The notes beneath the pieces were generated by a model. The model made no database searches. It saw only the letters and a program-made list of their open reading frames with translations, and was not told where the DNA came from. Source: Planctomycetota bacterium (lineage in GTDB: Bacteria; Planctomycetota; Phycisphaerae; Sedimentisphaerales; Anaerobacaceae). Taken from it: a stretch of 35,292 nt of DNA. Made by a program: the position numbers and the translations under genes. Location of the stretch: contig JAFNGF010000143.1 of assembly GCA_017885385.1 (NCBI GenBank), positions 9,884 through 45,175 of the forward strand. The letters run 5' to 3'. Below, in pieces: positions 9,502 to 29,552 of this stretch (position 1 is its first letter; the number at the start of each line of letters is the position of its first letter).

Positions 9502-10707
9502 TCAATGTGCGATGATGCTGGATATTCTAAAGACCGGCAGCAATAGGGCAATCGCAATAGTGCCGATGATTGTGCCGAGGACCGTGATCATTAGCGGCTC
9601 TATAAGAATCATAACGTTCTTGATTGAGCCTTGGAGCTTCTTTTCATAGAAGACAGACATCTTATCACAGACCTCGCCCAGCCTGCCGCTTTTTTCTCCT
9701 GCTCGCAGCATCTGGATAATGCCGGGTGCGATTAACCAGCCGCGCGGCGAAATCAGAATCGAGTCGGACAACTGGTAGCCGTCACGAATTTTGTCGCTCA
9801 CATCGGTCCAAAGCTCCTGAAAATAGGAATTCTGACACGAGCCTTGTATTACCTGTATTGATTCCAGCACTCTGACGCCCGTATTGACCATCGTGGCCAT
9901 AATGCGCATGCTGCGGCCCACCACCATATCGACAAACATTGTGCCGATCACGGGCGTGCGGATTTTGACGGTATCAATCACCCGACGGCCGATCGCGGTG
10001 CGGGACAAATAGTATAGTGCCACCGAAAGCAATATACCCGCGGTCACGACAGCGGTCATTATCTGGAAATTGCCCAGTATCTTACTGAAGCCCACCAAGA
10101 TCTGCGTAAGTTTGGGAAGTGCCGCACCTCTGGCTTCGTAAATCCTCATGAACCGCGGCAGAACAAAGAACATAAGCGTTCCGGTCGCGGCCACCGCCAT
10201 CAGGGCCATTATAAATGGATACGTAAGCGCTCCTTTTATGCTCTTACGAGTTTCAGCCTCAAAGCTTAGATAGCCGCTGAGCACGCTCAGCATTTCTGCC
10301 ATTCTGCCGGACGCCTCTGACGCCTTGACCATACTTATAAACATCGAATTAAAAACTCTCGGATAGGGAGTCAGCGCCTGCGAAAAATTTTCGCCGCCTT
10401 TGACCCTTTCAGCTATATTCATAATTATCGTCCTGAATGCTCCCTGCTCAGCCTGCTCGGCGATGGCGTCCAGAGCATCGCTCAGCACCACGCCGCTATC
10501 GAGCATCACCGACAGCTCCGTAGTGAACAGTATCAGCTCCGCGTGCTTTACTTTTGCCCTATGTAGCCCACCTGGTGACCCAAGGTCTGGGTGACTGAGC
10601 GGCTGAGGGGGGCCTTTCGGCGCGGTGCTTTCCACCTGATTAGCCGTTGGGGACGAATTTGGCGTTGATTTTATTGTTGCCACAGTCATTGTTTTCGCAC
10701 TCACCAC
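9502..10707 (-). CDS. gspF: type II secretion / type IV pilus platform protein (GspF/PilC family)
   Basis: The protein is about 400 aa with the duplicated T2SSF-type organisation and three hydrophobic segments (YPFIMALMAVAATGTLMFFVL, IMTAVVTAGILLSVALYYL, LMITVLGTIIGTIAIALLLPV). It starts 11 nt after the ATPase gene. The start is uncertain: 10707 is GTG, and an ATG is available at 10689. Confidence 0.9.
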   Translation of the reverse strand: MVSAKTMTVATIKSTPNSSPTANQVESTAPKGPPQPLSHPDLGSPGGLHRAKVKHAELILFTTELSVMLDSGVVLSDALDAIAEQAEQGAFRTIIMNIAERVKGGENFSQALTPYPRVFNSMFISMVKASEASGRMAEMLSVLSGYLSFEAETRKSIKGALTYPFIMALMAVAATGTLMFFVLPRFMRIYEARGAALPKLTQILVGFSKILGNFQIMTAVVTAGILLSVALYYLSRTAIGRRVIDTVKIRTPVIGTMFVDMVVGRSMRIMATMVNTGVRVLESIQVIQGSCQNSYFQELWTDVSDKIRDGYQLSDSILISPRGWLIAPGIIQMLRAGEKSGRLGEVCDKMSVFYEKKLQGSIKNVMILIEPLMITVLGTIIGTIAIALLLPVFRISSIIAH

Positions 10708-10718
10708 TGTAACAGATT

Positions 10719-12437
10719 TTATGGTTCTGCCTGGGTAGTTCTCAGTATCTCCTCAATAGAGACGATTCCGGCCTTTACCTTTTCAATTCCGTCTGCCTGC
10801 AGCGGAACCATTCCTTTTTCAAGCGCCTTTGCCCGGAGTTTCTTGGTGCTGATATGGTCGTCAATCATCTCTGCGATTTCATCATCGGGCACAAATAGCT
10901 CGTGAATAGCGATTCGGCCGACATAGCCCGTGTTGCGGCATTTTTTGCACCCTACGCCGCGGTGGAATTTGCCGACTCCCGTTGCCACTTTCTCAACGGC
11001 TCTTTTTATGCCGGCGGCCGGCTCATACTCGGTTTTGCAGCTGGCGCATATTTTGCGCACCAATCGCTGAGCCAGGACTCCAATCAAAGAAGCGCTGACC
11101 AGATATGGAGCAACCTTCAAGTCCACCAAACGTATCACCGCCCCGGGCGCGTCATTGGTATGCAGGGTCGACAAAACCAGATGGCCGGTCAGAGCCGCCT
11201 GTACCGCAATGTTGGCTGTGGCCTCATCGCGTACCTCGCCGACCATTACTATATCGGGGTCCTGCCGCAGCAGGCTCCGCAGAGCGGTGGAGAATTCAAA
11301 GCCCGCACTGCTGTTGACTTGAAACTGATTTATGCCCGATATGTTGCACTCCACAGGGTCTTCGACCGTGCAGATGTTTACCTCTTCCGTGTTTAGCTCA
11401 GATAGAGCAGCATATAGCGTGGTATTTTTGCCCGAACCGGTTGGTCCCGTCACCAGGACTATTCCATTAGGCGCCTGTATTATTTCTCTGAAACGCTGGA
11501 GGTTTTCGTAAGTGAATCCGAGCGACTCAAGATTATAGAAAACCTTCTGGGGGTCGAGGACCCTGATAACGACCTTTTCGCCGAAATTGGCGGGCATAAC
11601 GGATACCCGCAGATCGATCGGTCTGCCTTCGACCAGCACGTGAATGCCGCCATCCTGCGGCAGACGGCGCTGAGCAATGTCGAGCTCCGCCATAATCTTG
11701 ATGCGAGAGACTATTGCCGGATGCATCTGATGCGGTGGACGCAGCTTCTCATAGAGTTTGCCGTCCACACGATATCTGACGCGAAGTTTTTTGTCGTCAG
11801 GCTCAATGTGAATGTCACTGGCGTTTTCCTTAACGGCGTTATAAAGCAAATAATTGACGAGTTTGACGACCGGCGACTGACCCGCCACCTCCTCAAGGTT
11901 GCCGATATCCTGGGTGATGTTCTCCAAAAGCGTAAAATCTTCCAGTCCCTTGTCGTCGATAATATCGTCAATGACAAAGACGTTGGCGGCGGGCAAATAC
12001 GTCTGCAGCGTAGCTTTGATGTCCTTTGTAGTTGCGCATACCACCTGGACCTTGCAGCCGCTTATACGCCCTATTTCATCAATCAAGAATACGTTTGTAG
12101 GCTCACTCACCGCTACGGTCAGCACGTCACAAACCTTAAATAGCGGCAGTATAATATGCTCTTCGAGAAACTCTCTGGGCAGAATTTCCAACGCTTTTGG
12201 GTCACAAATCTTGGGGCTGACCTGGGCGTACGGCACGCTGTATGCCTCAGCCAGAGCCGCGGCTATCTGATTTTCGGTGCAGTAGGCCATCTCGACCAGA
12301 AGCTCGCCGAGCAGCTTGCGATGGCCCTTTTCCTTCTGTTCGGTAAGGGCCTTTTCAATTTGCTCGGCCGTCACGACCCCTCGCGCCAGCAGCAGCTGCC
12401 CTAGCTGAGTCTTGTTTTCCACCGCTATTTGAGCCAT
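10719..12437 (-). CDS. gspE: GspE/PilB-family secretion ATPase with an MshEN/T2SSE_N-type N-terminal domain
   Basis: Motifs read: Walker A GPTGSGKNTT, Asp box VEDPVE, Walker B DPDIVMVGEVRD, His box GHLVLSTLHTN, and tetracysteine CASC...CKKC. The N-terminus QLGQLLLARGVVTAEQIEKALTEQ fits the 24-residue MshEN motif. Confidence 0.95.
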   Translation of the reverse strand: MAQIAVENKTQLGQLLLARGVVTAEQIEKALTEQKEKGHRKLLGELLVEMAYCTENQIAAALAEAYSVPYAQVSPKICDPKALEILPREFLEEHIILPLFKVCDVLTVAVSEPTNVFLIDEIGRISGCKVQVVCATTKDIKATLQTYLPAANVFVIDDIIDDKGLEDFTLLENITQDIGNLEEVAGQSPVVKLVNYLLYNAVKENASDIHIEPDDKKLRVRYRVDGKLYEKLRPPHQMHPAIVSRIKIMAELDIAQRRLPQDGGIHVLVEGRPIDLRVSVMPANFGEKVVIRVLDPQKVFYNLESLGFTYENLQRFREIIQAPNGIVLVTGPTGSGKNTTLYAALSELNTEEVNICTVEDPVECNISGINQFQVNSSAGFEFSTALRSLLRQDPDIVMVGEVRDEATANIAVQAALTGHLVLSTLHTNDAPGAVIRLVDLKVAPYLVSASLIGVLAQRLVRKICASCKTEYEPAAGIKRAVEKVATGVGKFHRGVGCKKCRNTGYVGRIAIHELFVPDDEIAEMIDDHISTKKLRAKALEKGMVPLQADGIEKVKAGIVSIEEILRTTQAEP

Positions 12438-12470
12438 AATTGCTATTTTATTTGAATTTGGTGATTGTTC

Positions 12471-12806
12471 CTACGCGAAACTCTTTACGGCTTCTGCCAG
12501 CTCCGTGTAGCGGTCAAATTCGTTGTCGAGCCGAGTGACTTCCAGAATTTTCGCGCAGTTTTCATCAAGCCCTGCCAGTCTAAGCTGGGTTTTATTCTCG
12601 CTGCAGTGCTGCTGCATCCACAGCAATAGTTCCAATCCCTGGCTGTCGATAAATCCGACGGCGCGCATATCAAGGACTAAGCCAGCTCTGCGTTTTGCGG
12701 TCACATTGGTAATTGTGTTACGAAGCAGCTCTGTAAAATCGGCATCCAGCTCGCCCTGCAGCGCGATCACCGTGACATCGCCATAATCTTGGGTCTTGAC
12801 TTTCAT
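12471..12806 (-). CDS. STAS-domain protein (anti-sigma-factor-antagonist fold)
   Basis: The translation MKVKTQDYGDVTVIALQGELDA...LVLDMRAVGFIDSQGLELLL is typical of SpoIIAA/STAS proteins. Its ATG overlaps the upstream stop (ATGA at 12803-12806). Confidence 0.85.
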   Translation of the reverse strand: MKVKTQDYGDVTVIALQGELDADFTELLRNTITNVTAKRRAGLVLDMRAVGFIDSQGLELLLWMQQHCSENKTQLRLAGLDENCAKILEVTRLDNEFDRYTELAEAVKSFA

Positions 12807-14503
12807 CTGATTAGCACTCCCACCGCAGCGGTGCCGTACTCTGAAACGCCGTAACTGCGGTAAACTTCACTGCTGCCGTTCTGGATAATGTCCCACAGCT
12901 GATAGACTTCGCTGTTAAGAAAGACTCTGCCGACCTTCTCATCAAACTGCGTGCCCAGGCCGTTCTTTATCTCTGCCAGCGCGTCTTCGACGGTTCTTGC
13001 GTCTCTGTACGTCCGCTTAGAGGTCATTGCGTCGAAGCTATCGGCTAGGCCGACGATTTTGCCTACCAACGGTATCTGGGCGGCGGCCAAGCCATTGGGA
13101 TACCCACGCCCATCCGCGCGCTCATGGTGGCACAATACGCCCGGCACAATGTCACGCATCTGCTTAATCCCACCTAAGATGCCGGCTCCGATGGAAGGAT
13201 GTCTTCTTATGCGCTCCAGCTCTTGCTCGGTCAGCCGGCCCTGCTTACGCAGCACGGCTTCATCTATCCCAATTTTGCCGATGTCGTGCAGCAGGCCGGC
13301 CAGGTATATCTTGTGTATCTGCTCCTGCTCTAACGGCTCGATGTGGGCAACTCTCTCGGCAATCCATCGGGAGATGAGCGCAACCCGTTCGGAGTGGCCT
13401 CGCGTGTACTTATCCTTGGCATCGATACTGCTGGTCAGCGCTTTTAACGAGCCTATGAACAGCTCTTTAAGGTCGTTGAAAAGCCTGCCGTTTTCGATAA
13501 ACACCGCGCAGCCGCCGGCGACAGAGTTGAACAGTTTCACGTCGGTGCTGTCGAAATCCGGCTTGTCGAGCCTGTTTATGGCAACCATCAGTCCTATGAT
13601 GCAGTCGCCGGTTTTAGTTCTGTGTGTGAAGTGCGAATCTGCCCCTTCTTTTCCGCATAGCGGCACCGCGATAATGTTTTTTATGTTTGCCGGCCAGGCA
13701 TATTTGAAAGGAGAATCCACTTCGCTATCGAGCAGGGCTTCCTTGCCGCCGTTTATTTCGTCGACCAGTCGGCCATGCAATAAGGCCGCCGTATGCTCAT
13801 CTATATCTATCAGCCCGGACCCAGCCGCCAAGGCCAGCTTCTTTTCGCTGTCGACCGTCTTTTCCAGCAGTATTGCGATACCCTCGACAAGAACGATCTC
13901 GGTCAGACTATCACAAGCCATCTGGAGAAAGTTGGCGTCCGGCTCAGTGACCTTCATGTGTGTGCTGAGCTTGTGGAGCAGCACCAGCTCTTCATAGGTT
14001 TGGGATAGCTCAGCACTGATAACTTCAATTTCTTGCTCGGTCTTAAACGAGGATTCAAAACTCTCTACCAAAAGTCCCAGCATTTCACTTAAAGCCACTT
14101 CGGGCATTTGATATCTCTGGTCAACCTCTTTGTCCGTGTCAGAATGCAGACGTTTACCGAGGTCGATCAGGGCAGCTCCAACCACTTTGGCCTGCCCGTT
14201 TCTGTTGGAGGCTGGTTTTAAAGCGGCAGCCAAAACCGTGCTGCTCGTTGCGTGTACTGGATCCGCTTCTGACGCATCGCTGTCAGACGCGCTCGTGCTG
14301 GTACACATCACGCATAGCGCTTGGCGTGTTAGCTCGCCAGCGTTGCTTTCAAATCTGCCAGCTCCACGCAGCAAGACAAGCTCACCGTCGGCATCGTAAA
14401 CTGCAAAATTAGCGCCGAGCTTGTTTACCCTGCCGCCAAACCTCTTTAACTGGTGCATCTGCGATTGGCTGAGACTCTTGCCGGTTGTTGTCAACATAAG
14501 CAT
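12803..14503 (-). CDS. GAF-domain HD-GYP phosphohydrolase (putative c-di-GMP phosphodiesterase)
   Basis: HD is read at aa 406-407 (LLHDIGK). HHERADGRGYP (aa 459-469) is a complete HD-GYP signature. A GAF-like region spans aa ~185-340. The N-terminal ~170 aa are unassigned. Confidence 0.9.
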   Translation of the reverse strand: MLMLTTTGKSLSQSQMHQLKRFGGRVNKLGANFAVYDADGELVLLRGAGRFESNAGELTRQALCVMCTSTSASDSDASEADPVHATSSTVLAAALKPASNRNGQAKVVGAALIDLGKRLHSDTDKEVDQRYQMPEVALSEMLGLLVESFESSFKTEQEIEVISAELSQTYEELVLLHKLSTHMKVTEPDANFLQMACDSLTEIVLVEGIAILLEKTVDSEKKLALAAGSGLIDIDEHTAALLHGRLVDEINGGKEALLDSEVDSPFKYAWPANIKNIIAVPLCGKEGADSHFTHRTKTGDCIIGLMVAINRLDKPDFDSTDVKLFNSVAGGCAVFIENGRLFNDLKELFIGSLKALTSSIDAKDKYTRGHSERVALISRWIAERVAHIEPLEQEQIHKIYLAGLLHDIGKIGIDEAVLRKQGRLTEQELERIRRHPSIGAGILGGIKQMRDIVPGVLCHHERADGRGYPNGLAAAQIPLVGKIVGLADSFDAMTSKRTYRDARTVEDALAEIKNGLGTQFDEKVGRVFLNSEVYQLWDIIQNGSSEVYRSYGVSEYGTAAVGVLIR

Positions 14504-14544
14504 GCCCTAAGTTTATCGAACGGGTGAGCCTAAATCCTAATCCA

Positions 14545-14940
14545 TCATGGGTTCTCTTGGCTTACCGCCCGGTGATACAAAATGTCCTCGATGTTGCCCA
14601 GCAGCTCCCTCGGGCTGAATGGTTTGCTCAGACAGTCAGATATCTGCAAGTTCTCCTGCTGCTCTTGCGATATGGCGAAATTCCTGGCTGTCAGCAATAT
14701 CACCGGTATGTCCTTGGTCTGCTCAGTCTGCCGAAGCTTCTCCACGAGCTCCAATCCTGTCATAGCCGGCATCTGGAAATCCGTAACGATAATATCCGGC
14801 TTCTCTTGGCAAGCCAGCTCAAAGGCCTCCACGCCGTTTTCCGCCGACACAACCTCGTAGCCGTTATTGCGGAGCTTTATCGCCACCACGTGAACGATGT
14901 GTATCTCGTCATCAACCACTAAAACTTTCTTTCCCGTCAT
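14545..14940 (-). CDS. single-domain response regulator (CheY-like receiver, no output domain)
   Basis: ATG 14938-14940 has GGAGGAG upstream. The translation KVLVVDDE...DIIVTDFQMPAMTGLELV..ILLTA fits a receiver domain. The protein is 131 aa in total. Confidence 0.9.
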   Translation of the reverse strand: MTGKKVLVVDDEIHIVHVVAIKLRNNGYEVVSAENGVEAFELACQEKPDIIVTDFQMPAMTGLELVEKLRQTEQTKDIPVILLTARNFAISQEQQENLQISDCLSKPFSPRELLGNIEDILYHRAVSQENP

Positions 14941-15074
14941 TATTTCTCCTCCCCAACAGATTAGTATTCTGCATGATTTTGCGGTTAGCCGGCTGCTGTT
15001 TGCGATGGGGCTGCAACCTTTTTTGCCGCAGAGAGCACAGCCGGCTCAGAGTCCCGATGTATCGGGATATCTTT

Positions 15075-16553
15075 TTATCTCTGTAAACTCTGTGTACTCT
15101 GCGGCTCTCTCATCTGGGCGGTTGCCAAAGGCAGCTCAAAGCTAAACGTGCTTCCGACGCCGGGCTGACTGCTGACAAATACCCGGCCGTCGTGAACTTT
15201 TTCGACTATTTGTTTTACAAGGTTAAGCCCCAAGCCGGTCCCTTTTGCTTGCTTTTTATTTGCATCGACTCTGTAGAATTTATCGAAGATGTGTCCAATT
15301 TCATCCGGCGGTATCCCCACGCCCGTGTCGTTCACGGTAACTCGTGCTATACCCGCGGTTTCATCGACCGCTGTTTCAACCGAGACCGACCCTCCACTGG
15401 GCGTGTACTTTATTGCGTTGCTGAGCAGATTGACAATCACCTGCGAAATCATGTCTCTATCTGCGTACACCTGGTCATATACTATGGGCTTTTGCGTAAT
15501 CACGTTGATATTTTTCTCCTCAGCGTAACCTTTTATCATTTGTAGCTGCTCTTCTATAAGTATTGTTAAGCTGACAGGCTTTTTTTCCACCTTTATCAGG
15601 CCGGACTCTATGCGTGAGATATTTAGAATGTCTTCAATCAGGCGATTGAGCCTTTTGGCCTGATTCTGAATTATTGAGTAAAACTGCTTCCGGGTCTTTT
15701 CATCGTCCGCTTCGCCATCGGCGAGCATCTCCGAGTAGGCGGTAATGGAGGCAAGCGGCGTCTTCAGCTCGTGGGACACGTGGCTGACGAAATCATTCTT
15801 CATCTGGGATATTTCCTTCTCGCGCGTAATATCGTGCAGCACCGCTACGACCCCACAAATTTCCTGGCGCTGATCGTAAACGCAGGAAACGATGCAGTCG
15901 AAAGTCCTCGGCCTTGCATCCTGTGCCAACTGGATTTCCCGCCTGGTTGCCTCTATCTTGCTGCGCCTGCTCTGGCGAAGAAAATCTATGAACACACTCT
16001 TACTTTTGTCGACCAGCTCGCCAATGGGCTTATGCTGTGCGTTTTTGTAATCAAAGTCAAAGAGTCTGCCCGCGGCCTCATTGGCCATTAGCAACCTGTC
16101 GAGCTCGTCAATAACGATAACGGCGTCCCGCAGGCTGTATATAATGGCTTCAGTGTTTCTCTTTTGTCTGTGCGACAGTTGAATCTGGAGCTGCAGATCC
16201 TTAACTTCATTTTGGAGCCGATCTATCGTCCCAGAATACTCCTTGACGCGGTCATCAATCGCTCGGGTCAACTCCTTTGTGATCGCACTGAGCTTCGGCC
16301 TGTTGTTAACGGGCTGGTCTTGTTTTAACCATTTGGCTATGGACGTGACTGCCCCAGCCAGTCTAACGCAATGCCAGCCGAGCCAAATCACGCCCATAGC
16401 CGCTATGCAATACGCGATAAGAAGCGGCACATCGTACCACTTGCTTGCGGCTGCTGCGACGGGCGAATCTTTCCACCCGGCCAGAGTCGCCGCCAGCAAA
16501 CTACACACCACGACGGTGGTGACTATCGCGTATGCTTGTCTTGCAAACTTCAA
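15075..16553 (-). CDS. membrane sensor histidine kinase (2 TM, coiled coil, PAS-like, HisKA, HATPase_c)
   Basis: Motifs read: H-box SHVSHELKTPL, N-box NLLSNAIKYTP, and G-boxes DTGVGI and GTGLGL. The start is uncertain. TTG 16553 has GGAG 8 nt upstream and gives MKFARQAYAIVTT.... The track start at 16595 is also TTG and lies inside a hairpin repeat. Confidence 0.88.
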   Translation of the reverse strand: MKFARQAYAIVTTVVVCSLLAATLAGWKDSPVAAAASKWYDVPLLIAYCIAAMGVIWLGWHCVRLAGAVTSIAKWLKQDQPVNNRPKLSAITKELTRAIDDRVKEYSGTIDRLQNEVKDLQLQIQLSHRQKRNTEAIIYSLRDAVIVIDELDRLLMANEAAGRLFDFDYKNAQHKPIGELVDKSKSVFIDFLRQSRRSKIEATRREIQLAQDARPRTFDCIVSCVYDQRQEICGVVAVLHDITREKEISQMKNDFVSHVSHELKTPLASITAYSEMLADGEADDEKTRKQFYSIIQNQAKRLNRLIEDILNISRIESGLIKVEKKPVSLTILIEEQLQMIKGYAEEKNINVITQKPIVYDQVYADRDMISQVIVNLLSNAIKYTPSGGSVSVETAVDETAGIARVTVNDTGVGIPPDEIGHIFDKFYRVDANKKQAKGTGLGLNLVKQIVEKVHDGRVFVSSQPGVGSTFSFELPLATAQMREPQSTQSLQR

Positions 16554-16595
16554 AGTAACAACTCCAACTCTATTGCGTTGCACCGGGGCACCCAA

Positions 16596-16634
16596 CCCCG
16601 CAATAAATTGCGGGGCTAAACATTTAGGTGGCCC
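16596..16634 (-). repeat. copy (c) of the double-hairpin family, canonical orientation on the minus strand, between secretin stop and kinase start
   Basis: CCCCGCAATAAATTGCGGGG (16596-16615) overlaps GGGGCTAAACATTTAGGTGGCCC (16612-16634). Confidence 0.6.
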
Positions 16635-19786: not shown

Positions 19787-20533
19787 TCACGACTCATCTT
19801 GTCGGTAGTTTGCCAGATAGCAGCTTATCTCAAACTCGCTTACCTGGTACTTGGCGGCTGCCGGCTGGGCATCGGTTCGCATCTGGCCGGATGTCTTTGC
19901 TGTCCTTGTGTCACCACCGGCCGTAGAGCTGCTGCCTGCATCGACCGTTTTGTAGCGTGAGAACGAAGGACGAACCAGGCAGAAATACGGCGAATCCTCC
20001 AATCTGCATATTAGCTCCGCTACATCGCTCGGATCTGAGGCAACACCATTTATTACGATCTTGAATCTGACCTTGCCGAGCAGCGGCGCCTGTTTACCGC
20101 CAAAACTGCCGCTTGCGACTCTAACCACAGAAGCGCTTGTGGCTTTCTGCTCGGACGTCTGGTCAAACTGTTCCGCAGTAAATTCCACTTTGCTCAGGAT
20201 AATCTTTGCGTCGACCAAGAAACTCATTTCGGCCAAAACGCTTGCCACATCAATTCTGGAAACGATTTCTTCGATGACACGTGCTTTTCTCTGCAATTCT
20301 GCAAGCTCGCTTTCAACCTTTTTGAATTCTCCCGATACACTCTGCGCCTGTGATTGCTTGGGGGCCATTTGAGCAAGCTCTGCTGTTGCCTTCGAAACCG
20401 AGCGAATAGAAACAAGATGCCACGCCATCATTACCACAAACATACCACCCAGAGCGACGCACTGCGTTCGGTAGCTGATTTGCCGGCGTCTGCCGCTTTT
20501 GTACCATTCTGGAAGAAAATCAATCTCTTTCAT
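19787..20533 (-). CDS. pilN: PilN-like pilus assembly protein
   Basis: The translation MKEIDFLPEWYK is followed by a single TM segment (CVALGGMFVVMMAWHLV) and a coiled coil. ATG 20531-20533 has AGGA 7 nt upstream. The alternative start at 20554 would overlap pilM by 17 nt. Confidence 0.7.
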   Translation of the reverse strand: MKEIDFLPEWYKSGRRRQISYRTQCVALGGMFVVMMAWHLVSIRSVSKATAELAQMAPKQSQAQSVSGEFKKVESELAELQRKARVIEEIVSRIDVASVLAEMSFLVDAKIILSKVEFTAEQFDQTSEQKATSASVVRVASGSFGGKQAPLLGKVRFKIVINGVASDPSDVAELICRLEDSPYFCLVRPSFSRYKTVDAGSSSTAGGDTRTAKTSGQMRTDAQPAAAKYQVSEFEISCYLANYRQDES

Positions 20534-20537
20534 ACGG

Positions 20538-21698
20538 CTATCCTGCGGCTCCATCCCAGCCCTTAAGGCTAAGCCCGACAGCTACGGCCCACTCACAAAG
20601 CAGGCCTCGCCTGTCACTGTCGAGATTTATATGCATGCCCTCGCCGGACAGGTTGAAGCCCTTCAACGGCTGGGCCGCCTCGATTTCAACCGCCAATCTT
20701 CGCGTCAAGACGTTAATCAACGTACTTTCGTATGCCTCACCTCCGGTTAAAAATGCTCGCTCGACGCGTTTCCCGCGGAAAGTCACGGTATAATATCTAA
20801 GGCACAGTGATATCTCCGCTGCCAGCTCTTCGGCAACAGCTCCTATGGCATCGGTTATGGCCTGCCGTGTCGCCGTATCAAGGGATCGACCGCCTTTGTC
20901 CGGGTCCTGGTCCATCAATTCGGCCTCTGATGTCAGTAAGCCTCTTTCTGCTCGAAGCCTGCTTCGGAGCATTGATGCTTCACTGATTTCGATGCCCAGT
21001 TTAGCCGCGATTCCCCTGTCGAAATTTTCGCCGCCAAGGGCCATCTGCTTAACGAAACAAATCTCTGTTCCGCGGCCAAAGACCACGCTGGTGAACTGGG
21101 CCCCTATATCCACAAAGACAGCTGTGCGCTCCTTGTCCTGCTGCCGCCTGAGAGACCTCTCAAAGCTCCTGAACAACGCGCACGGCACCGTATCTATGGC
21201 TACCGGCTTAAGGTTAGCCTCCTCAAGCATGGCAATATGACTTTTTATTGTTTCGTTGTCTGTGGCAAACAATATCAGCTCATTCTTAACCTCATCGCCC
21301 TGCTGAACACTGCCGGCAAGTATATATTTAATTGCGTCTGTATCCGGATTCAGTGCGAAGCGGTTGGCAGCTTCTTTTGCCAAGGTCTGCTCGATCTGAC
21401 CTATCTCGGTCTCAGACAGGCGCAGACTCGTGATCTTCAGCTTGTCATTCGGCAAACATGAAACGACATTTCGGCCGCGGAATTTACCGTCCGCCAATAT
21501 CCGTTTTATCGCCGAAACAACGAACTGCTTTCTTTCTTGGCCGTCGCCGTTTATCTTGGGATCAATGCGAACTTTGTCCGCCGCAAGAACTGCAATCTGG
21601 CTGTCATTAATCACCAGCTGGAGCATCTTGACATAGTTATGGCCGATGTCCAATCCTATCGGTCGCAAGCCTCGAGTCTTTAAGTTCCAGCTTAGCAT
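20538..21698 (-). CDS. pilM: PilM (actin-like ATPase-fold pilus assembly protein)
   Basis: IGLDIGHNYVKMLQL and VFVDIGAQFTSVV are phosphate-binding motifs of the actin/HSP70-like fold. The protein is 386 aa and directly precedes the PilN-like gene. Confidence 0.85.
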   Translation of the reverse strand: MLSWNLKTRGLRPIGLDIGHNYVKMLQLVINDSQIAVLAADKVRIDPKINGDGQERKQFVVSAIKRILADGKFRGRNVVSCLPNDKLKITSLRLSETEIGQIEQTLAKEAANRFALNPDTDAIKYILAGSVQQGDEVKNELILFATDNETIKSHIAMLEEANLKPVAIDTVPCALFRSFERSLRRQQDKERTAVFVDIGAQFTSVVFGRGTEICFVKQMALGGENFDRGIAAKLGIEISEASMLRSRLRAERGLLTSEAELMDQDPDKGGRSLDTATRQAITDAIGAVAEELAAEISLCLRYYTVTFRGKRVERAFLTGGEAYESTLINVLTRRLAVEIEAAQPLKGFNLSGEGMHINLDSDRRGLLCEWAVAVGLSLKGWDGAAG

Positions 21699-21715
21699 TT
21701 AGGTTCGTATCCTGA

Positions 21716-22216
21716 CTAGTTGCCTATCGAGATGTAGCCGGTGACAGGCTCTACTCTAATCGTCTTGGTAACGCCCGCTGCTTGCAGGCTGATGACGCCG
21801 CTGTTCAAAGCAGTGTTATTACCGTTAATGGGGCTTCCGAGATAATCAAACTGGACCTCGCTGGTGGCGTCAAAATTTGCATCGAAAATATCAACTCTAT
21901 TTAGTCTGCGGTCGTTACGGAAATCTACGACGTAATTGAATCCTTTTTTTACCGGGTGCGGTATTACGTTGTCATTCTGATCCTTTATCTGGTAAGTCTC
22001 AGCAGCTTTATCAAAAACCACAGAAAAATTTTGGCCTCTGCTGATTGCCATACTTTTAGCGTATTCCAGGTCCGCTGCGACAATGTTTGCCGCGGATTCA
22101 ATCTGTATGCTTGCCGCCGACGACATCATAGGTACTACCATCATCCCTGCTATGGCCAGCAGCACTACCACAATAAGAATCTCAATAATCGTAAAGGCAC
22201 GGGCACAAAAAACCAT
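21716..22216 (-). CDS. GspH/FimT-like pseudopilin (prepilin-type N-terminal methylation domain)
   Basis: ATG 22214-22216 has GAGGAGG 11 nt upstream, whereas the track start at 22225 is GTG. The N-terminus is MVFCARA|FTIIEILIVVVLLAIAG with Glu at +5. Confidence 0.8.
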   Translation of the reverse strand: MVFCARAFTIIEILIVVVLLAIAGMMVVPMMSSAASIQIESAANIVAADLEYAKSMAISRGQNFSVVFDKAAETYQIKDQNDNVIPHPVKKGFNYVVDFRNDRRLNRVDIFDANFDATSEVQFDYLGSPINGNNTALNSGVISLQAAGVTKTIRVEPVTGYISIGN

Positions 22217-22250
22217 CTTACACACTGCCTCCTCTCAAATGACAAAAGGC

Positions 22251-22394
22251 CAAATACGAAACCCGAAGCATAAAATACGAAACAAATACAGATGACAAAA
22301 ATACAGAACTCGAAACAAGTCGAGCAGCGTCCTGAACATTCGGCGTTTGAAGCTCGAATTTGTTTCGGATTTCGATATTCGATATTCGAGTTTT
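22251..22394. repeat. composite A/T-rich short-period repeat block with dyad symmetry
   Basis: On the left, AAATACGAAAC occurs twice (22252, 22273) 21 nt apart, with AATACAGA variants nearby. On the right (22360-22394) are five heptamers: TTGTTTC GGATTTC GATATTC GATATTC GAGTTTT. GTTTCGGATTT is a 10/11 reverse complement of AAATACGAAAC. Confidence 0.75.
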
Positions 22395-22688
22395 TGCTTC
22401 TTGGCTCATTATGAACCCTACCTCCGTCTTCTTTTCGGCTCGTTTTAGCTGTGCCTTTACCTGCACGTTAGCCGGCTCGGACGAACCTGCCGGCACTGCC
22501 AACCCAGGATCCGCTGAAGTTAACAGAACATACACTCACTTTCGACTTACCGGCACAACTTCAGGCCGCACGTGCGGCGATACAAATGTCACATCCCATA
22601 CTTTATGCAGTTAAGGCCAACAAAATTGGCACAATCGTCAAGGCAACAGAGCAAGAAAAGTAGAGGCAAAACGCCGCCTTGAAGACGT

Positions 22689-22727
22689 GGCTGAATATTC
22701 AGCCCCACGTCTCACGTGGGGTTTTTT
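22689..22727 (+). repeat. copy (e) of the double-hairpin family, with a T-run on the plus strand
   Basis: GGCTGAATATTCAGCC (a perfect 16-nt palindrome, 22689-22704) overlaps CCCCACGT-CTC-ACGTGGGG (22703-22721), followed by TTTTTT (22722-22727). Confidence 0.65.
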
Positions 22728-22798
22728 CTTATTCGTCGCATACAAAGGCCGATAAGCAGCTTCTGCCTCGGCCACTCAAGAAAACCCATAAGCGCTTA

Positions 22799-24577
22799 TT
22801 AGTCTCTGCGGATACTTCTGAAAAACGCCCCGGCTGCCTGCCCCCACTTCTGTACCGCCCCTTGCTCGGACCAGGTGATGATAGCCGTCTTTGTCGGTGC
22901 GGCGGTAATAGCGGCATTGCTGCCGGACTCGTCGAATTTCCAGTGCGCTATCAGCCCGGGCAGTCCGTCAACGGGTGGATAGACCTCGTTCACATTCAAC
23001 GCCCGGTTGTAGATGCGCACGTCGTCGATCAAGCCGCCGTAGACGTAGCCTGGCGCAGGAGTCCTGTCAGTGGCAATGTTAAGATGTCCGTCGCCGAATC
23101 CTGGACTGTTAAGCCACACACCCGTGGTGCGAGGGATACCATCCAGATAAGAGGTCATTACGGCTCCACTTCGGACGATCCCAACATGGTGCCATGCACC
23201 TGCAAGCTCGCTGAGCAAAATCCCGGTGTCCCACGATTTAGGACTCGGCAGGTAATCCCGATGGTAAACAGTAAGTTTTTTGGGACTACCGGAATTGAAT
23301 TGGAGCGTCCAGTGGTTTGTCGATCCGCTGGGGTTGCATTTTGAGATTATACCCGCCCAGTCCTTCTGGGAAGAGGCGGGCTTTACCCAGACCGACAAAG
23401 TATAGTCATTGGCCACTTGGAGCTTGGTCAGCGAGTTAGGGGTCTGCACATAGTCGTCAACTCCGTCGAACTGCAGCGCCCCGCCTGTTCGACCACCTGT
23501 AGGCTGCCAGGTCGCGCCGTTGTACAGCACTGCAACATTGGCGCTGCTGGAGGAGTCTGCGGCGGTTTCAGCCAGTCCATCGTCTGTGAATAGGGCGCCA
23601 AGAACGGTCAAATTAGCACCGCCGGCCCCGAGCAGCGTACGTCCATACACGACAGCCAATCCGTTAATCTGTAGAGCGGCGGCGTTTTTTATCGTTAGCT
23701 CACCAGTCACGAGCAATGCGGGCATGTTTTTTGCCGCTACGATTATGTTTCTGTCTCCCTGGATTGTCAGATCGCCGACAACTACGAGCATACTCTCGAT
23801 TCTGACGTCGCCGGCCAACACCAAGTCGCTGCTGCGGTAGCACACCTGTACGGGGTTGCTATATGGCCCGAGCGTAACGCCGGAAAGACTGCTTGAGGTT
23901 ATGACCACCGTACTGTATCTTGAAGTAAAATCAGCGACCGTAATTCGAGGCCAGACCAGCGACAAATCTGTGGTTGCCTTATGCCGGCCGCCTATAGTTC
24001 CAGTCAACGCACCGGCAAATACATCACCGTTAATTGCACCCCTGTTTTCCAACGTGCCGTTACAATAGAGGTCGCCGTTGATTCTGACGCCGGACCAGAT
24101 AATCGCGGCGCTTCCGGTCCACAACGCTATACACGGGTCAAGGCGAAGGTCACCCGATAAGCTGCAACGACCTACTTCCTGGCCGGCCTTCATCCGGTAA
24201 GAGTTACAGTCTATGATGTAATTGCAGTAGTCAGTCGGGTCCGAGTCATCGCGAACCACTGCGACCTCGTAGTAATCCTCGCTTCCTGCTGCCAGCTGCT
24301 GCGCCGCAGCTCCGGTCCAGTATTCCGAAGCCACATCCTGCGGGTACAAAACCAGCCCTTTGGCGTGCTCCAAACCGGACTCAGCCAGGTAATCCATCTG
24401 CGTGCGCAGTATCATATTCTCGCCGCAAGCCAGCTCCACATCGCTTCGCGACATAAAGCCCAGCGACAAAATGGTTATGGCCATAATAACAAAGAGGACG
24501 ACAAGTAAAGCTGCCCCTCTGTCTGTATATCGTATATCGTATGTCGTATGTCGTAATTCAATCATTTGCTTAGTCAT
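22799..24577 (-). CDS. large GspK-like minor pseudopilin with a C-terminal LamG (Laminin_G_3-type) lectin-fold domain
   Basis: The N-terminus RGAALLVVLFVIMAITILSLGF..EL resembles GspK. The LamG domain spans aa 367-532 (nt 22982-23479): ALQFDGVDDYVQTP...TLSVWVKP...GGLIDDVRIYNRAL. The ATG overlaps the end of the upstream gene by 8 nt. Confidence 0.8.
   Translation of the reverse strand: MTKQMIELRHTTYDIRYTDRGAALLVVLFVIMAITILSLGFMSRSDVELACGENMILRTQMDYLAESGLEHAKGLVLYPQDVASEYWTGAAAQQLAAGSEDYYEVAVVRDDSDPTDYCNYIIDCNSYRMKAGQEVGRCSLSGDLRLDPCIALWTGSAAIIWSGVRINGDLYCNGTLENRGAINGDVFAGALTGTIGGRHKATTDLSLVWPRITVADFTSRYSTVVITSSSLSGVTLGPYSNPVQVCYRSSDLVLAGDVRIESMLVVVGDLTIQGDRNIIVAAKNMPALLVTGELTIKNAAALQINGLAVVYGRTLLGAGGANLTVLGALFTDDGLAETAADSSSSANVAVLYNGATWQPTGGRTGGALQFDGVDDYVQTPNSLTKLQVANDYTLSVWVKPASSQKDWAGIISKCNPSGSTNHWTLQFNSGSPKKLTVYHRDYLPSPKSWDTGILLSELAGAWHHVGIVRSGAVMTSYLDGIPRTTGVWLNSPGFGDGHLNIATDRTPAPGYVYGGLIDDVRIYNRALNVNEVYPPVDGLPGLIAHWKFDESGSNAAITAAPTKTAIITWSEQGAVQKWGQAAGAFFRSIRRD
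24525..24559. repeat. 5 tandem heptamers GTAT(A/G)TC (coding strand GAATTAC GACATAC GACATAC GATATAC GATATAC) inside codons 7-18 of the K-like gene
   Basis: Read directly from the sequence. The array translates to ..ELRHTTYDIRYT.. just before the hydrophobic segment. Confidence 0.9.
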
Positions 24578-25181
24578 CGTCGGTTACAATGCTCTGGCCG
24601 TCGGCGCTTAGCAGATTTCCCGCCCAGCCGCGAACGGCACTGTTTATCTGGTAGTGGTGCACAACGCCGTCCTCGGCAAGGTCAAACGAAATACTAACAA
24701 ATTTGGTCCGCGGCGGCGCAACATCAACCAGAAACTCTACGTTGCTGCACTGTGGTATCAGCGTCGCACGTGTCACGCTGTATCCGCTTGGTGATAGTGC
24801 TGCCACGTTGGCCAGCAGCACCACAGACGTATCGGACGCCGGAAATTCGCAAAGCCGCAGATAGTTTTTGCCCGTCCCTCTTTCGACATACACCAGCTCG
24901 TTGACGTTAATCTGTCCGTCGCTGTTGTCGTCAGCCTGCCAGACGGCCAATTCGCCGCCCGGCGTGCCGCAGATCAACCTGCACTGCCGAATCAGTTCCG
25001 AAATCCTGAGCGTGGCAAAACGGACTTCCGCCTGCTTGCGACTTGTATCGTCAGTGGCATCGGTTGCCCTGCCCAGAGCGAAAGCAAGCGTGGCCACAGT
25101 CGTTAGAATCAGACTGCTAACAACCAAAGCCACCAGCAGCTCGACCAGCGTAAAGCCGTGCTCGTACTTGGTATCTCGCAT
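24570..25181 (-). CDS. GspJ/PilW-like minor pseudopilin
   Basis: The N-terminus MRDTKYEHG|FTLVELLVALVVSSLILTTVATLAF is a prepilin-type motif with Glu at +5. Confidence 0.8.
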   Translation of the reverse strand: MRDTKYEHGFTLVELLVALVVSSLILTTVATLAFALGRATDATDDTSRKQAEVRFATLRISELIRQCRLICGTPGGELAVWQADDNSDGQINVNELVYVERGTGKNYLRLCEFPASDTSVVLLANVAALSPSGYSVTRATLIPQCSNVEFLVDVAPPRTKFVSISFDLAEDGVVHHYQINSAVRGWAGNLLSADGQSIVTDDD

Positions 25182-25198
25182 CTCGTATCTCGTATTTC
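25164..25198. repeat. 5 tandem heptamers (coding strand GAAATAC GAGATAC GAGATGC GAGATAC CAAGTAC) spanning the start codon of the J-like gene
   Basis: The minus strand reads TAG-GAAATACGAGATACGAGATGCGAGATACCAAGTAC. TAG is the stop of the I-like gene, and the ATG of the J-like gene lies in unit 3. Confidence 0.9.
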
Positions 25199-25696
25199 CT
25201 ATTTACTTATGAGCCGATTTATGATCGCGATCGGTCTACCGCTGTAATGCACCCGCACCGTGACGCGAATGAAATTCGCCTGTCCGGCTCCACTTTGCTG
25301 CGGCACATAAACAGACTCACAGGTTGCGTTCCTGCTGAAGTTGGCGTAAGCCGGGTCCGTAAATATAGTCCCTGCGGAGTCTTTCAACTGCCCTTGCGGC
25401 TCGGAGTAACCATTATAGTTAGCGACTATTTGCTCAAACGGAGTATTTACAATTTGCTCGATTAAATCACCTGCCAGCTTGGCGCCCAGCGTTCGGCGAG
25501 TACCTTCAGCTCGTATCTTTGCGCCGTCGGCAAAAGGAAGCAGGACACCAGCCGCCGCAATACCCAATACCACGGTGGCCATCATCGCCTCAGCGAGCGT
25601 AAAACCACAGCGTGCACAACGGTAGGATGGGCACCGCCCACCAATTTGATAGCAGCGTGCAGTGCACACCCTACCTCTCTTTCTGCTAATAATCAT
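25199..25696 (-). CDS. GspI/PilV-like minor pseudopilin (start uncertain)
   Basis: ...RCG|FTLAEAMMATVVLGIAAAGVLLPF is a prepilin-type motif with Glu at +5. ATG 25694-25696 gives an unusually long, Cys/Arg-rich 31-aa leader. A GTG nine codons further in is also possible. The track start at 25804 overlaps the upstream gene by 119 nt. Confidence 0.7.
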   Translation of the reverse strand: MIISRKRGRVCTARCYQIGGRCPSYRCARCGFTLAEAMMATVVLGIAAAGVLLPFADGAKIRAEGTRRTLGAKLAGDLIEQIVNTPFEQIVANYNGYSEPQGQLKDSAGTIFTDPAYANFSRNATCESVYVPQQSGAGQANFIRVTVRVHYSGRPIAIINRLISK

Positions 25697-26165
25697 AGTA
25701 TCGTTTTCCGTTATTGTCGGTTCCGCTGGTGTCGGCTCGTATTTCCGCCGTGGCTCCCTTACATATCCAGCCGTGACTATCGTCGGCGTTGGGCGGGAAA
25801 TCATCCCCGTCTGCGAGCATCTGGATCGTAGTCAGATTGTTGAAGGGATTTACCGGAATCTTTTGCATATATGGGCCGCGCTCGAACCCGGCAGTCCCTA
25901 CCGCAGCAGTTTGGCCGCTGGCGTTGCTCGACATTGTAGCCTGCTCAATAAAGGCCTGCTCCGTAGGTCCGGGAGCAACTTCCAGATGCTGGCTTTTATA
26001 GACCAGAATGAAGTTGCGAAGCAACTGCAAATCGGTTGCCAGAGCACTCGCCTTGGCCGACGTTGTACTATTGCCAACGGTTGCGATGACGACCGCGGCC
26101 AGGATTCCGAGCAAGACCACCACCACGAGAATCTCGACAAGCGTAAAAGCTCTTGCCTTGTTCAT
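25686..26165 (-). CDS. GspG-like pseudopilin / type IV pilin, paralogue 2
   Basis: ATG 26163-26165 gives MNKARA|FTLVEILVVVVLLGILAAVVIATV. The track start at 26249 reads through a palindromic repeat. Confidence 0.85.
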   Translation of the reverse strand: MNKARAFTLVEILVVVVLLGILAAVVIATVGNSTTSAKASALATDLQLLRNFILVYKSQHLEVAPGPTEQAFIEQATMSSNASGQTAAVGTAGFERGPYMQKIPVNPFNNLTTIQMLADGDDFPPNADDSHGWICKGATAEIRADTSGTDNNGKRYYDY

Positions 26166-26195
26166 AGCTTGCCCTTTCGCATTGACGCACACTTT

Positions 26196-26302
26196 GTCAT
26201 TCCCTCGCAAGGTTGTCATCCCTGCCTTGGAGCAGGGACGGGAATCCACAACGCGATAGATTTCTGGATTCCTGCCTCCGCAGGAATGACAAGCCTGTCA
26301 TT
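26196..26302. repeat. nested palindromic element built on GTCATTCC / GGAATGAC between the two G-like pilin genes
   Basis: The outer pair is GTCATTCC (26196-26203) with GGAATGAC (26283-26290). Inner hairpins are CCCTGC-CTTGGA-GCAGGG (26220-26237), GGAATCCA-16 nt-TGGATTCC (26241-26272) and TTCCTGC-CTCC-GCAGGAA (26269-26286). The last two share the bases TTCC and are therefore mutually exclusive. Confidence 0.7.
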
Positions 26303-26432
26303 AAAAAGGCTGACCTGCTTTCGGCAAAAGCCTTAGCACGATCAGCCTATTTGTCTATTCCATCATTCTGGCCAGCCTAAGCTGGCGATCTGTCGTGGCA
26401 AGACCCACCAGACTTCCGCTGCCACTACACTC

Positions 26433-26912
26433 TTAGAGAGCGGCATGGGCAGCAGTGTCACAAGCGTGAAACGCTCCGGTATCGGTGTTGAAGTACCAGC
26501 CGACACTGCCATCCGTGACGATCGGAGGTGTGGCTGCCGTCCCCTCGGCAGTTCCATCACTATCGACGAACTGGTTCGTCGGGATCTTCATCAGGTAGGG
26601 ACCATAACAATCAGTTGTAGTAGTAATAGGTACAGCCGCTCCGAAGATATCGGTCTTGCCGGTCAAGGCGAGCACAAAGCCAGCCGCGCCTGTATGGGTG
26701 CCATTTGTCACGCCAGGCAGATTGTCATTGTGCTGAATCTTATACAGCTCAATCTGCGAGCGAACGGACGAAAGGTCGGTGACCAGACTGGAGAGCTTGG
26801 CTTCGCTGCTGGCCTCAGTGAATTGAGGTATCACGATAGCAGCCAGGATGCCAAGAATGACCACGACGATCAGAATTTCCACTAATGTAAAACCACTTTT
26901 CGCTTTCATCAT
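26433..26912 (-). CDS. GspG-like major pseudopilin / type IV pilin, paralogue 1 (first gene of the cluster)
   Basis: The N-terminus is MMKAKSG|FTLVEILIVVVILGILAAIVIPQF with Glu at +5. An SD-like GGGGTG lies upstream. Confidence 0.9.
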   Translation of the reverse strand: MMKAKSGFTLVEILIVVVILGILAAIVIPQFTEASSEAKLSSLVTDLSSVRSQIELYKIQHNDNLPGVTNGTHTGAAGFVLALTGKTDIFGAAVPITTTTDCYGPYLMKIPTNQFVDSDGTAEGTAATPPIVTDGSVGWYFNTDTGAFHACDTAAHAAL

Positions 26913-29526: not shown

Positions 29527-29552
29527 AACTTGTACCTCCCTAATTGCCCCTG

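Follow-up and report, generated by a model that had tools for sequence, protein, structure and literature searches.

A kinase, receiver, phosphodiesterase and STAS module linked to the PilB-type ATPase of a predicted type IVa pilus-like machine in Phycisphaerae

The 35,292-nt stretch of Planctomycetota DNA analysed here (the window; contig JAFNGF010000143.1 of assembly GCA_017885385.1) carries a cluster of 17 genes, all on the minus strand between positions 9502 and 26912. They encode prepilins, PilM, PilN, PilO, a secretin, a PilB-type ATPase and PilC, and, between the secretin and the ATPase, a cassette of a histidine kinase, a stand-alone receiver, an HD-GYP phosphodiesterase and a STAS protein. 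We propose, with moderate confidence, that the cluster encodes a type IVa pilus-like machine whose extension ATPase has a dedicated post-translational control module, and that module and ATPase form one evolutionary unit. The gene content, the domain architectures, the adjacency of cassette and ATPase, the fusions of STAS to the ATPase, the exchange of HD-GYP for GGDEF-EAL and the conservation of catalytic motifs were all observed. Pfam and NCBIfam scans and the open reading frame listing gave the same domains as a first-pass annotation made from the sequence alone; the profile-HMM searches that it had proposed confirmed every minus-strand gene. Coordinates below are on the minus strand unless stated otherwise.

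Linkage of the cassette to the extension ATPase

We compared the window proteins by tblastn with 80 loci retrieved with the ATPase (the L-numbers below denote such loci). The HD-GYP and STAS genes lie directly upstream of the ATPase gene in 22 of the 23 informative Planctomycota-type loci (ATPase identity 61-87%). The kinase and receiver genes are present as well in all 19 loci of this type that extend far enough, and the secretin gene precedes the cassette in 17. Even a 4-nt overlap between the HD-GYP and STAS genes is repeated in most relatives. The exception is L030, which keeps STAS beside the ATPase and has a TPR protein upstream. Other Planctomycota PilB paralogues (L045, L068, L072, L076 and L082) are without the cassette. 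The position of the cassette, which the first-pass annotation had suggested comparing, was thus conserved in every informative close relative, which argues for dedicated control of this machine.

The same association is found in other phyla. A Desulfobacterota locus (P0024) has the order kinase, receiver, GAF-HD-GYP, STAS, ATPase, PilC, pilin, PilM, PilN, PilO, a 171-aa protein and secretin. A second locus from this phylum (L071) has the same cassette order, but with STAS fused to the ATPase. L088 encodes a kinase, a receiver and a fused STAS-ATPase, with no phosphodiesterase. Nine gammaproteobacterial loci encode a kinase, a receiver, a sensor-region protein of ~600-750 aa and a STAS-MshEN-T2SSE fusion, and the myxococcal locus L056 has a fused STAS-ATPase with a kinase in front. 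STAS-MshEN-T2SSE single proteins, with their domains confirmed by Pfam, were found in 11 proteobacterial or myxococcal genome loci and in L088, and the fusions were called as single genes independently by JGI, NCBI and Logan. At 50% identity, at least 15 clusters cover both STAS and MshEN with a single alignment stretch; this count is a lower bound, since the top matches of the search with STAS+MshEN representatives were mostly multi-MshEN proteins. STAS-separate and STAS-fused ATPases each form a clade in a neighbour-joining tree.

Among Desulfobacterota, Gammaproteobacteria and Myxococcota, the cassette comes first in the operon, with the ATPase gene right behind it. The cassette is therefore not an insertion but travels with the ATPase. 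The first-pass annotation had described it as inserted between secretin and ATPase; that order holds here and in the relatives, but not the notion of an insertion. By gene order, we take the cassette to be an ATPase-linked portable module and the Phycisphaerae arrangement to be a permutation of gene blocks.

The cassette proteins and a proposed mechanism

The first cassette gene (15075-16595, with a start possibly at 16553) encodes a membrane-anchored PAS-HisKA-HATPase kinase (HisKA 72.2 bits, HATPase_c 106.5 bits) with the H-box SHELKTPL and orthologues in 19 related loci. It is followed by a stand-alone receiver without an output domain (14545-14940; Response_reg 93.1 bits), which has the DD pocket, the phospho-acceptor Asp in TDFQMP, the Thr and the Lys-Pro. 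With an H-box and HATPase domain on one side and the conserved Asp on the other, the two are a predicted phosphotransfer pair. The third protein (12803-14503) consists of a PAS/GAF-like N-domain, a long helix, a GAF domain and HD-GYP. Its assignment as GAF-HD-GYP in the first-pass annotation stands, the HD-GYP part by sequence (HD_5, 112 bits) and the GAF part, which is weak by sequence, by fold. The 111-aa STAS protein (12471-12806; STAS 60.5 bits) scores 74.3 bits against TIGR00377, above the cutoff of 53.45, and its start overlaps the HD-GYP stop codon by 4 nt. Pfam and NCBIfam searches found no DNA-binding output domain in the cassette proteins.

In the mechanism that we propose, the membrane PAS-histidine kinase would sense a signal and phosphorylate the stand-alone receiver. 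As a second input, the phosphodiesterase, through its PAS/GAF-like, helix, GAF and HD-GYP parts, may remove or sense cyclic di-GMP (c-di-GMP) or a related cyclic dinucleotide. The STAS protein, translationally coupled to the phosphodiesterase, would bind the N-terminal region of the PilB-type ATPase, and its binding would gate ATPase activity or docking to PilM/PilC and so turn filament assembly on or off. A lectin-domain minor pilin would sit at the filament tip and probably serve adhesion to polysaccharide, or else support secretion. We infer the physical interactions, the direction of regulation, the ligand and the cellular output alike. More broadly, the STAS proteins may be a widespread and previously unrecognised class of regulator of PilB-type extension ATPases, as dedicated cofactors or as N-terminal domains, within a portable kinase, receiver, phosphodiesterase and STAS module that gates compact type IV filament machines in Planctomycetota, Desulfobacterota, Gammaproteobacteria and Myxococcota; in our judgement this wider claim is an even bet.

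Type of machine

The first-pass annotation had labelled the cluster a hybrid of a type II secretion system (T2SS) and a type IV pilus. This label appears overstated. A type IVa pilus-derived core is favoured because the ATPase resembles PilB over its full length, PilM, PilN and PilO are present, the secretin is PilQ-like and relatives carry PilT and a PilW-like lipoprotein. The ATPase (10719-12437; T2SSE 445 bits, MshEN 60 bits) has an MshEN-like N-domain and full-length PDB matches to PilB structures (5zfr, 5tsg and 3jc8), with Geobacter and Myxococcus PilB at ~1e-149 over residues 10-571. Against GspE PDB chains, the alignment begins only at residue 158, suggesting that an N-terminus of the PilB/MshEN type stands in place of the N1 domain that binds GspL. 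The score against TIGR02538 was 598.3 bits, under the cutoff of 675.65, and spanned residues 12-569; that against TIGR02533 was 600.6 bits, under the cutoff of 630.25, and spanned residues 85-568 only. The adjoining platform protein (9502-10707; T2SSF 168.8 bits, two domains) is equidistant from the GspF and PilC models.

PilM_2, PilN and PilO each pass their Pfam cutoffs. PilM, the actin-like cytoplasmic platform protein (20538-21698), scored 82.4 bits against PilM_2 and 109.8 bits against TIGR01175. PilN (19787-20554) scored 23.4 bits with a cutoff of 22.8, and its N-terminal IDFLPEWY resembles the PilM-binding INLLP motif. PilO (19164-19733) scored 45.1 bits and had a weak GspM match of 21.4 bits against a cutoff of 60. 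The short, PilQ-like secretin (16661-18463; Secretin 135 bits, Secretin_N 32.8 bits) matched the whole length of the PilQ model TIGR02515 (positions 10-428 of 428; 196 bits, under 284). The match to the GspD model TIGR02517 (211.5 bits, under 351.35) covered model positions 283-596 only, which is its C-terminal half.

The position of PilP is taken by a 202-aa bitopic protein (18508-19116) with one transmembrane helix, a disordered linker and a C-terminal beta domain. No Pfam, NCBIfam or relevant PDB match was found for it, also when a profile of 15 orthologues was searched against the PDB, and a Pfam scan of all orthologues gave nothing but T2SSC on one member at E 0.1. AlphaFold2, run with 36 sequences, modelled residues 119-199 with a predicted local distance difference test (pLDDT) of ~90. 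Foldseek with this model found nothing in the PDB at E<=0.001, PilP (2ivw) ranking 37th at E 0.71. The family is confined to Phycisphaerae, where every member is named "hypothetical". The earlier description of this protein as PilP-like thus fits its position and topology, while the sequence and fold searches detected no similarity to PilP.

PilT, GspC/L/M and a prepilin peptidase, which the first-pass annotation had reported as missing, were found neither in the window nor among the called genes ~10 kb past each end, and a PilT query on the window matched the PilB-type ATPase alone. The reservation that these genes might lie immediately outside the window was therefore checked against the called flank genes, and none turned up. 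A genuine PilT gene is present between PilB and PilC in L028 (11488-12804) and L030 (11652-12884), with TIGR01420 scores of 418-427 bits against a cutoff of 319. The ATPases of these two loci are 52-61% identical to that of the window, and the gene order is the classical pilB-pilT-pilC. A TPR lipoprotein of 390-440 aa, with PilW/Tgl matches under cutoff, is encoded between the secretin and the kinase in L016, L017, L020-22, L027 and L028; none is encoded in the window. By this comparison, the sub-clade of the window appears to have lost PilT and the TPR lipoprotein from the locus.

The two major-pilin candidates resemble GspG, geopilin, PilE and PilA equally, over the alpha1 helix only, and neither has a match to Pfam T2SSG. 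Prepilin 1 (26433-26912; 159 aa) has the leader MMKAKSG/FTLVE, two C-terminal Cys and an N_methyl score of 33.1 bits. It scored 51.2 bits against the GspG model, under the cutoff of 88.85, and its PDB matches span the alpha1 helix only, with geopilin, GspG and PilE alike. Prepilin 2 (25686-26165; 159 aa, as is the L005 gene call) starts MNKAR/AFTLVE and scored 29.9 bits against N_methyl and 50.8 bits against GspG, again under cutoff. Next come two minor prepilins, one "I-like" (25199-25696; 165 aa, N_methyl 23.3 bits, weak PilV and GspH matches) and one "J-like" (24570-25181; 203 aa, N_methyl 31.5 bits, weak ComGF and PRK10557 matches); both labels are positional only. The leader of the "I-like" pilin (25610-25696) is a Cys/Arg-rich stretch of 29 residues, MIISRKRGRVCTARCYQIGGRCPSYRCARC, before GFTLAE, and greatly exceeds the usual length of leaders in type IVa prepilins.

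The next gene (22799-24577) encodes a modular minor pilin of 592 aa with a GspK/PilX-like N-terminus, a beta-rich centre and a C-terminal ConA-like lectin domain. Its N-terminus, RGAALLVVLF, is without Glu5, and the GspK match is N-terminal only (25.5 bits, cutoff 130). The lectin domain scored 91.2 bits against Laminin_G_3, with a LamG match to PDB 4qvs at 7e-9. LamG pilin-like genes are present too in the gammaproteobacterial loci L055 and L073. This protein is likely the tip subunit. A GspH/FimU-like minor pilin follows (21716-22216; 166 aa, as in the L089 gene call; MVFCAR/AFTIIE) and scores 25.9 bits against Pfam GspH, over the cutoff of 21. Of the pilin labels in the first-pass annotation, H is therefore borne out by Pfam, while G, I, J and K rest on N-terminal helices under family cutoffs. 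A solitary 265-aa N_methyl prepilin-type protein is encoded on the plus strand at 538-1335, 8 kb from the cluster; it may be an extra substrate of the machine or of the missing peptidase.

The presence of H/I/J/K-type minor pilins is no mark of a T2SS, because such pilins belong to the core of type IVa pili as well. Pfam, NCBIfam and PDB searches found no GspC/L/M platform, no GspE N1E domain and no full GspD secretin, by which a T2SS would be recognised. Denise et al. (2019) describe many "generic" type IV filament systems whose parts match the profiles of several types (PMC6668835). A mixed profile such as that of the present cluster is ordinary in non-model phyla.

Could the machine nevertheless be type II-like, with a short pseudopilus that pushes folded polysaccharide-degrading enzymes through the secretin and a cassette that controls secretion? 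Such a reading would suit a locus without PilT in the window or its flanks, and GspG is the best-scoring model for the major pilins, though under cutoff. It would also give a cargo in the same-strand neighbours, a Sec-signal rhamnogalacturonan lyase and a 1292-aa PA14/beta-helix protein, the latter type recurring near the locus in L008, L019 and L023. Moreover, Bacteroidetes "T2SS" cluster with type IVa pili in the analysis of Denise et al. (2019) (PMC6668835). However, GspC/L/M are absent, the ATPase has no N1 domain of the GspE kind, the short secretin resembles PilQ and related loci have PilT and the PilW-like lipoprotein. The pilin helices fail to separate GspG from type IVa pilins, and a lectin domain on the GspK-like pilin suits an exposed adhesive tip. 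We regard type II-like secretion as unlikely, though with some real chance of being right, and prefer the type IVa pilus-like machine. As to its function, the lectin-bearing tip pilin favours an adhesion role of the filament, while the lack of PilT and the neighbouring genes for a Sec-signal lyase and a PA14/beta-helix protein would allow a secretion role.

The phosphodiesterase slot and c-di-GMP

The HD-GYP protein carries HDIGK and HHERADGRGYP, that is, the HD metal site and the HHExxDGxGYP motif. Both motifs are present in 23 of the 24 sequences scanned (22 relatives and the window), the GYP pattern being unmatched in L008. The best PDB matches are V-cGAP3 (5z7c) and PmGH (4mcw), both at ~1e-32, and PA4781 is matched too. 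In an AlphaFold2 model of the sensor region (mean pLDDT 75), a small alpha/beta domain is followed by a 45-residue helix and a GAF domain, and the model matches the tandem-GAF regulatory segments of cyclic-nucleotide phosphodiesterases and cyclases. The family is large, with 1,703 clusters at E<=1e-5, and is annotated only as "HD-GYP domain-containing protein".

The gammaproteobacterial loci have a different enzyme in this slot. Over their first ~310 residues, the HD-GYP proteins of Phycisphaerae share homology with the N-terminal part of the gammaproteobacterial GGDEF-EAL proteins (hhalign probability 97.4%, E 1e-11, 272 columns). A (GAF-)GGDEF-EAL architecture was confirmed by Pfam in all three gammaproteobacterial slot proteins scanned (L050, L055 and L073). 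E[VI]LxR is found in 5/5 of the slot proteins checked from this class, DDFG[TA]G in 3/5 and an intact GGDEF in 2/5. The EAL-type motif is thus the one that is always kept, suggesting that phosphodiesterase activity is the common denominator. That one sensor scaffold carries, in the same slot, either of two unrelated domains that degrade c-di-GMP argues for selection on nucleotide degradation or nucleotide-dependent signalling.

The ATPase itself could be a c-di-GMP receptor. The published relaxed MshEN pattern consists of two 24-residue motifs, [RKPN]hGxxhhxx[GAS]hhxxxxhxxxhxx[QNKRYWST], with a 5-residue spacer (PMC5013675). In the window ATPase, motif I agrees at 10/11 constrained positions and begins QLG rather than RLG (Gln for Arg/Lys). 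Motif II agrees at 8/11, the spacer has 7 residues rather than 5, and the motif ends in Ala or Gly rather than Gln. The protein passes the NCBIfam model NF053729 with 58.8 bits (cutoff 38). Nineteen of 21 Phycisphaerae-type ATPases, including that of the window, are without an exact MshEN motif, and none has more than one, whereas in 9/11 fused ATPases one or two motifs are exact and the spacer has the canonical 5 residues. A change of Arg9 shifts the affinity of MshEN by up to fivefold, and changes at hydrophobic positions by more than tenfold (PMC5013675). Given the tolerance at Arg9 and the degenerate motifs, direct binding is possible but doubtful. This doubt favours a relay of the signal through the phosphodiesterase and STAS, by analogy with FimX-PilZ-PilB (PMC8389850), and the recurrent 4-nt HD-GYP/STAS overlap fits such a relay.

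Several observations weigh against the mechanism proposed above. The window ATPase has no exact MshEN motif and does not match the relaxed pattern, making direct c-di-GMP binding by the ATPases of its clade doubtful. V-cGAP3 is a phosphodiesterase specific for cyclic GMP-AMP (cGAMP), and the HD-GYP domain appears as similar to this enzyme as to c-di-GMP enzymes. The module versions of L088, L056 and L030 have no phosphodiesterase, so the c-di-GMP branch is not obligatory. The Ser at the phosphorylation position of the STAS protein is replaced by Gly in four relatives (L012, L018, L023 and L025). Finally, hairpins at two cassette junctions, secretin/kinase and kinase/receiver, could separate transcripts.

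Some of these points would be met by a core without c-di-GMP, in which the kinase signals through the receiver to STAS and the ATPase, while HD-GYP or GGDEF-EAL is an optional accessory, working as a scaffold or trigger enzyme or on a different nucleotide, for example 3'3'-cGAMP. L088 and L056 do without the phosphodiesterase, L030 retains STAS only, MshEN motif II is degenerate in the Phycisphaerae clade and the best PDB match of HD-GYP is the cGAMP-specific enzyme. Yet two unrelated c-di-GMP-degrading domains share the slot on a homologous sensor, the phosphodiesterase catalytic motifs are strictly conserved and the fused ATPases retain canonical MshEN motifs. We think it rather improbable that c-di-GMP has no part in the core, and keep the phosphodiesterase as the second input in the proposed mechanism. 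A 104-aa protein with a weak PilZ match is encoded ~8 kb past the right end of the window (L005, 1950-2264) and could be another c-di-GMP receptor nearby.

The STAS protein

The closest structures to the STAS protein in the PDB are TM1442 and SpoIIAA; the match to the MlaB model is weak (30 bits, cutoff 90). The Ser at the phosphorylation position of SpoIIAA (DSQG) is present in the window and in most relatives, and the NCBIfam antagonist model is passed. The protein might thus be a classical anti-sigma-factor antagonist that controls the transcription of pilus genes by partner switching and does not act on the ATPase. However, the locus and the related loci have no gene for an HATPase_c_2-type (RsbW/SpoIIAB) kinase, a PP2C phosphatase or a sigma factor, and four relatives have Gly in place of the Ser. 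The covalent STAS-ATPase fusion of many genomes is hard to square with a free partner-switching protein. The lack of partner genes nearby, the relatives with Gly and the fusions speak for a STAS protein that acts directly on the ATPase rather than in classical partner switching, and we judge an anti-sigma role to be quite unlikely.

Junctions and the 573-bp intergenic region

From the H-like pilin gene to pilC, the junctions range from a 17-nt overlap to a 134-nt gap. The 4-nt HD-GYP/STAS overlap and the 134-nt kinase/receiver gap were already given in the first-pass annotation, and these spacings and the junction sequences match. The receiver gene is preceded by a strong Shine-Dalgarno sequence, GGAGGAG. 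The hairpins at the secretin/kinase and kinase/receiver junctions are without U-tracts. The secretin/kinase junction varies in length and structure among relatives and is not conserved. A promoter and terminator consensus scan of 8400-27900 gave counts no higher than in shuffled controls, so that no transcript boundaries can be called from it. Co-transcription of the cassette with the structural genes is plausible from the gene arrangement. The two hairpins are what might speak for a cassette that shares the operon by chance as an unrelated neighbour, but we find this hardly credible for a cassette that lies beside the ATPase in at least four phyla despite a permuted remainder of the operon, and whose STAS protein is fused to the ATPase.

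The region between the genes of the K-like and H-like pilins (22226-22798) holds a hairpin, a promoter-like block, a Shine-Dalgarno-ATG and an upstream open reading frame. The hairpin, with a 10-bp stem, lies just past the K-like pilin gene (22701-22723). It is followed by the promoter-like block of ~65 nt (~22585-22650), which is conserved in L012, L010 and L029, and by a GGAGG-N9-ATG at 22409, which is conserved in these three and in L014. From this ATG, a 63-codon upstream reading frame (22218-22409) runs to a stop 1 nt before the Shine-Dalgarno-ATG of the H-like pilin itself. In L012, L010, L029 and L014, the reading frame opened by the equivalent ATG continues into the G/A-F-T-x-x-E motif of the H-like pilin, suggesting unusually long and variable leaders of ~17 to 87 residues. 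The first-pass annotation had called the region filled with repeats, which it is not. Tandem Repeats Finder gave only a 7-mer x2.7, and short 7-nt repeats lie inside the 63-codon frame. The sequence of the region is identical in an independent assembly. A reading of the block TTGGCC-N5-TGCAT as a sigma-54 promoter was rejected, as the GG-to-GC spacing is 9 and not 11. Rfam gave no credible match at gathering thresholds over the whole window or at E<=10 over both intergenic regions.

Source and neighbouring genes

The JGI metagenome contig Ga0494785_000012 (192 kb) is near-identical to the window and differs by a 56-nt change in repeat number. A 99%-identical copy of one window protein is deposited as Sedimentisphaerales, and the nearest genomes by ATPase identity (74-87%) are metagenome-assembled genomes labelled Phycisphaerae, Sedimentisphaerales or "Planctomycetota". 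Both flanks of the cluster carry housekeeping and polysaccharide-active genes. The two same-strand neighbours with Sec signals, the 1292-aa PA14/parallel-beta-helix protein (4554-8432) and the rhamnogalacturonan lyase (27826-29700), are each a possible cargo or co-functioning adhesin. Within the PA14/beta-helix gene, low-GC (0.44) tandem repeats of 66-69 nt (5305-5689) are probably coding repeat modules.

A heptamer array (GACAGAA/GACGGAG; ~21 copies, with a 31-mer x2.6) lies just downstream of pilC on the plus strand and is convergent with it. Together with the sigma-70-like promoter before it, TTGACG-N18-TATGAT (10/12 matches), it makes up the region 9005-9330. GGA is denser here than anywhere else in the window (19 per 300 nt against a median of 3). 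Copy number varies, since two JGI contigs of the same organism have 8 more units (56 nt) in the array. We rejected the array as a conserved CsrA-sponge small RNA, a class to which it bears a resemblance only, since relatives are without such tandem repeats and Rfam gave no match. Another repeat, a 21-nt unit x2.7 with a 7-mer TCAATTT substructure (2375-2431), overlaps the start of a His_biosynth-family gene.

Significance and comparison with known systems

The on/off control of extension ATPases in type IV pili and related secretion machines is under active study. The PilB cofactors known so far, namely c-di-GMP through MshEN, FimX-PilZ, PilZ/PlzR, SgmX/MglA and PATAN receivers, were described in a small number of model proteobacteria, cyanobacteria and myxobacteria. 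The present locus and its relatives point to a further solution, in which STAS on or beside the ATPase would receive input from a two-component system and a cyclic-dinucleotide phosphodiesterase. Nature has already run experiments in the split and fused forms of STAS and in the exchange of HD-GYP for GGDEF-EAL, and they open the hypothesis to direct tests with purified proteins. The locus is also a first point of entry to how Phycisphaerae, abundant anaerobic polysaccharide degraders with almost no genetics, regulate their surface filaments. Full-text searches, which did not cover most subscription journals, found no paper that links STAS to PilB, GspE or MshEN or that describes the cassette. 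A 2024 review of PilB cofactors mentions neither STAS nor HD-GYP (PMC11656802). The module is thus probably undescribed in the literature.

The machine shares PilB, PilC, PilM, PilN, PilO, a secretin, several prepilins and the H/I/J/K minor set with type IVa and "generic" filament systems (PMC6668835). Unlike these, the locus has no PilT, pilotin or peptidase, its pilins are pseudopilin-like, its K-like pilin bears a lectin domain and a regulatory cassette is embedded in the cluster. With the c-di-GMP-binding MshE/PilB ATPases, the window ATPase has in common an MshEN-like N-domain that passes NF053729, and the fused proteobacterial relatives keep the canonical tandem motifs (PMC5013675; PMC7096442; PMC11656802). 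In contrast, motif I of the window clade starts with Gln, motif II is shifted and its terminal Gln is lost.

A small STAS or STAS-like partner coupled to a c-di-GMP enzyme and a phosphorelay is also found in HsbA-HsbD (PMC5085249) and in SiaC-SiaD (PMC8457831), where SiaC is a putative STAS-type partner. Both act on diguanylate cyclases with dedicated kinase/phosphatase partners, whereas the enzyme of the present cassette is a phosphodiesterase, genes for such partners are absent and what is conserved as the partner is an ATPase of the secretion type. MlaB, the STAS accessory subunit of the ABC ATPase MlaF, is a precedent for a STAS protein that binds and regulates a P-loop ATPase directly. 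MlaF belongs to another ATPase superfamily and process, however, and the sequence kinship with MlaB is at the level of the STAS superfamily only.

A parallel in layout is the three-layer chain of nucleotide enzyme or sensor, adaptor and ATPase in FimX-PilZ-PilB of Xanthomonas, in which a c-di-GMP-turnover-type protein and a small adaptor act on the N-terminal region of PilB and control pilus assembly (PMC8389850; PMC5595344). The chain proposed here differs in that the predicted adaptor is STAS and not PilZ, and the enzyme is an HD-GYP protein with intact catalytic motifs (GGDEF-EAL elsewhere) and a PAS/GAF-GAF sensor. It further has a dedicated histidine kinase and receiver, and all of its parts are encoded in one block with the ATPase.

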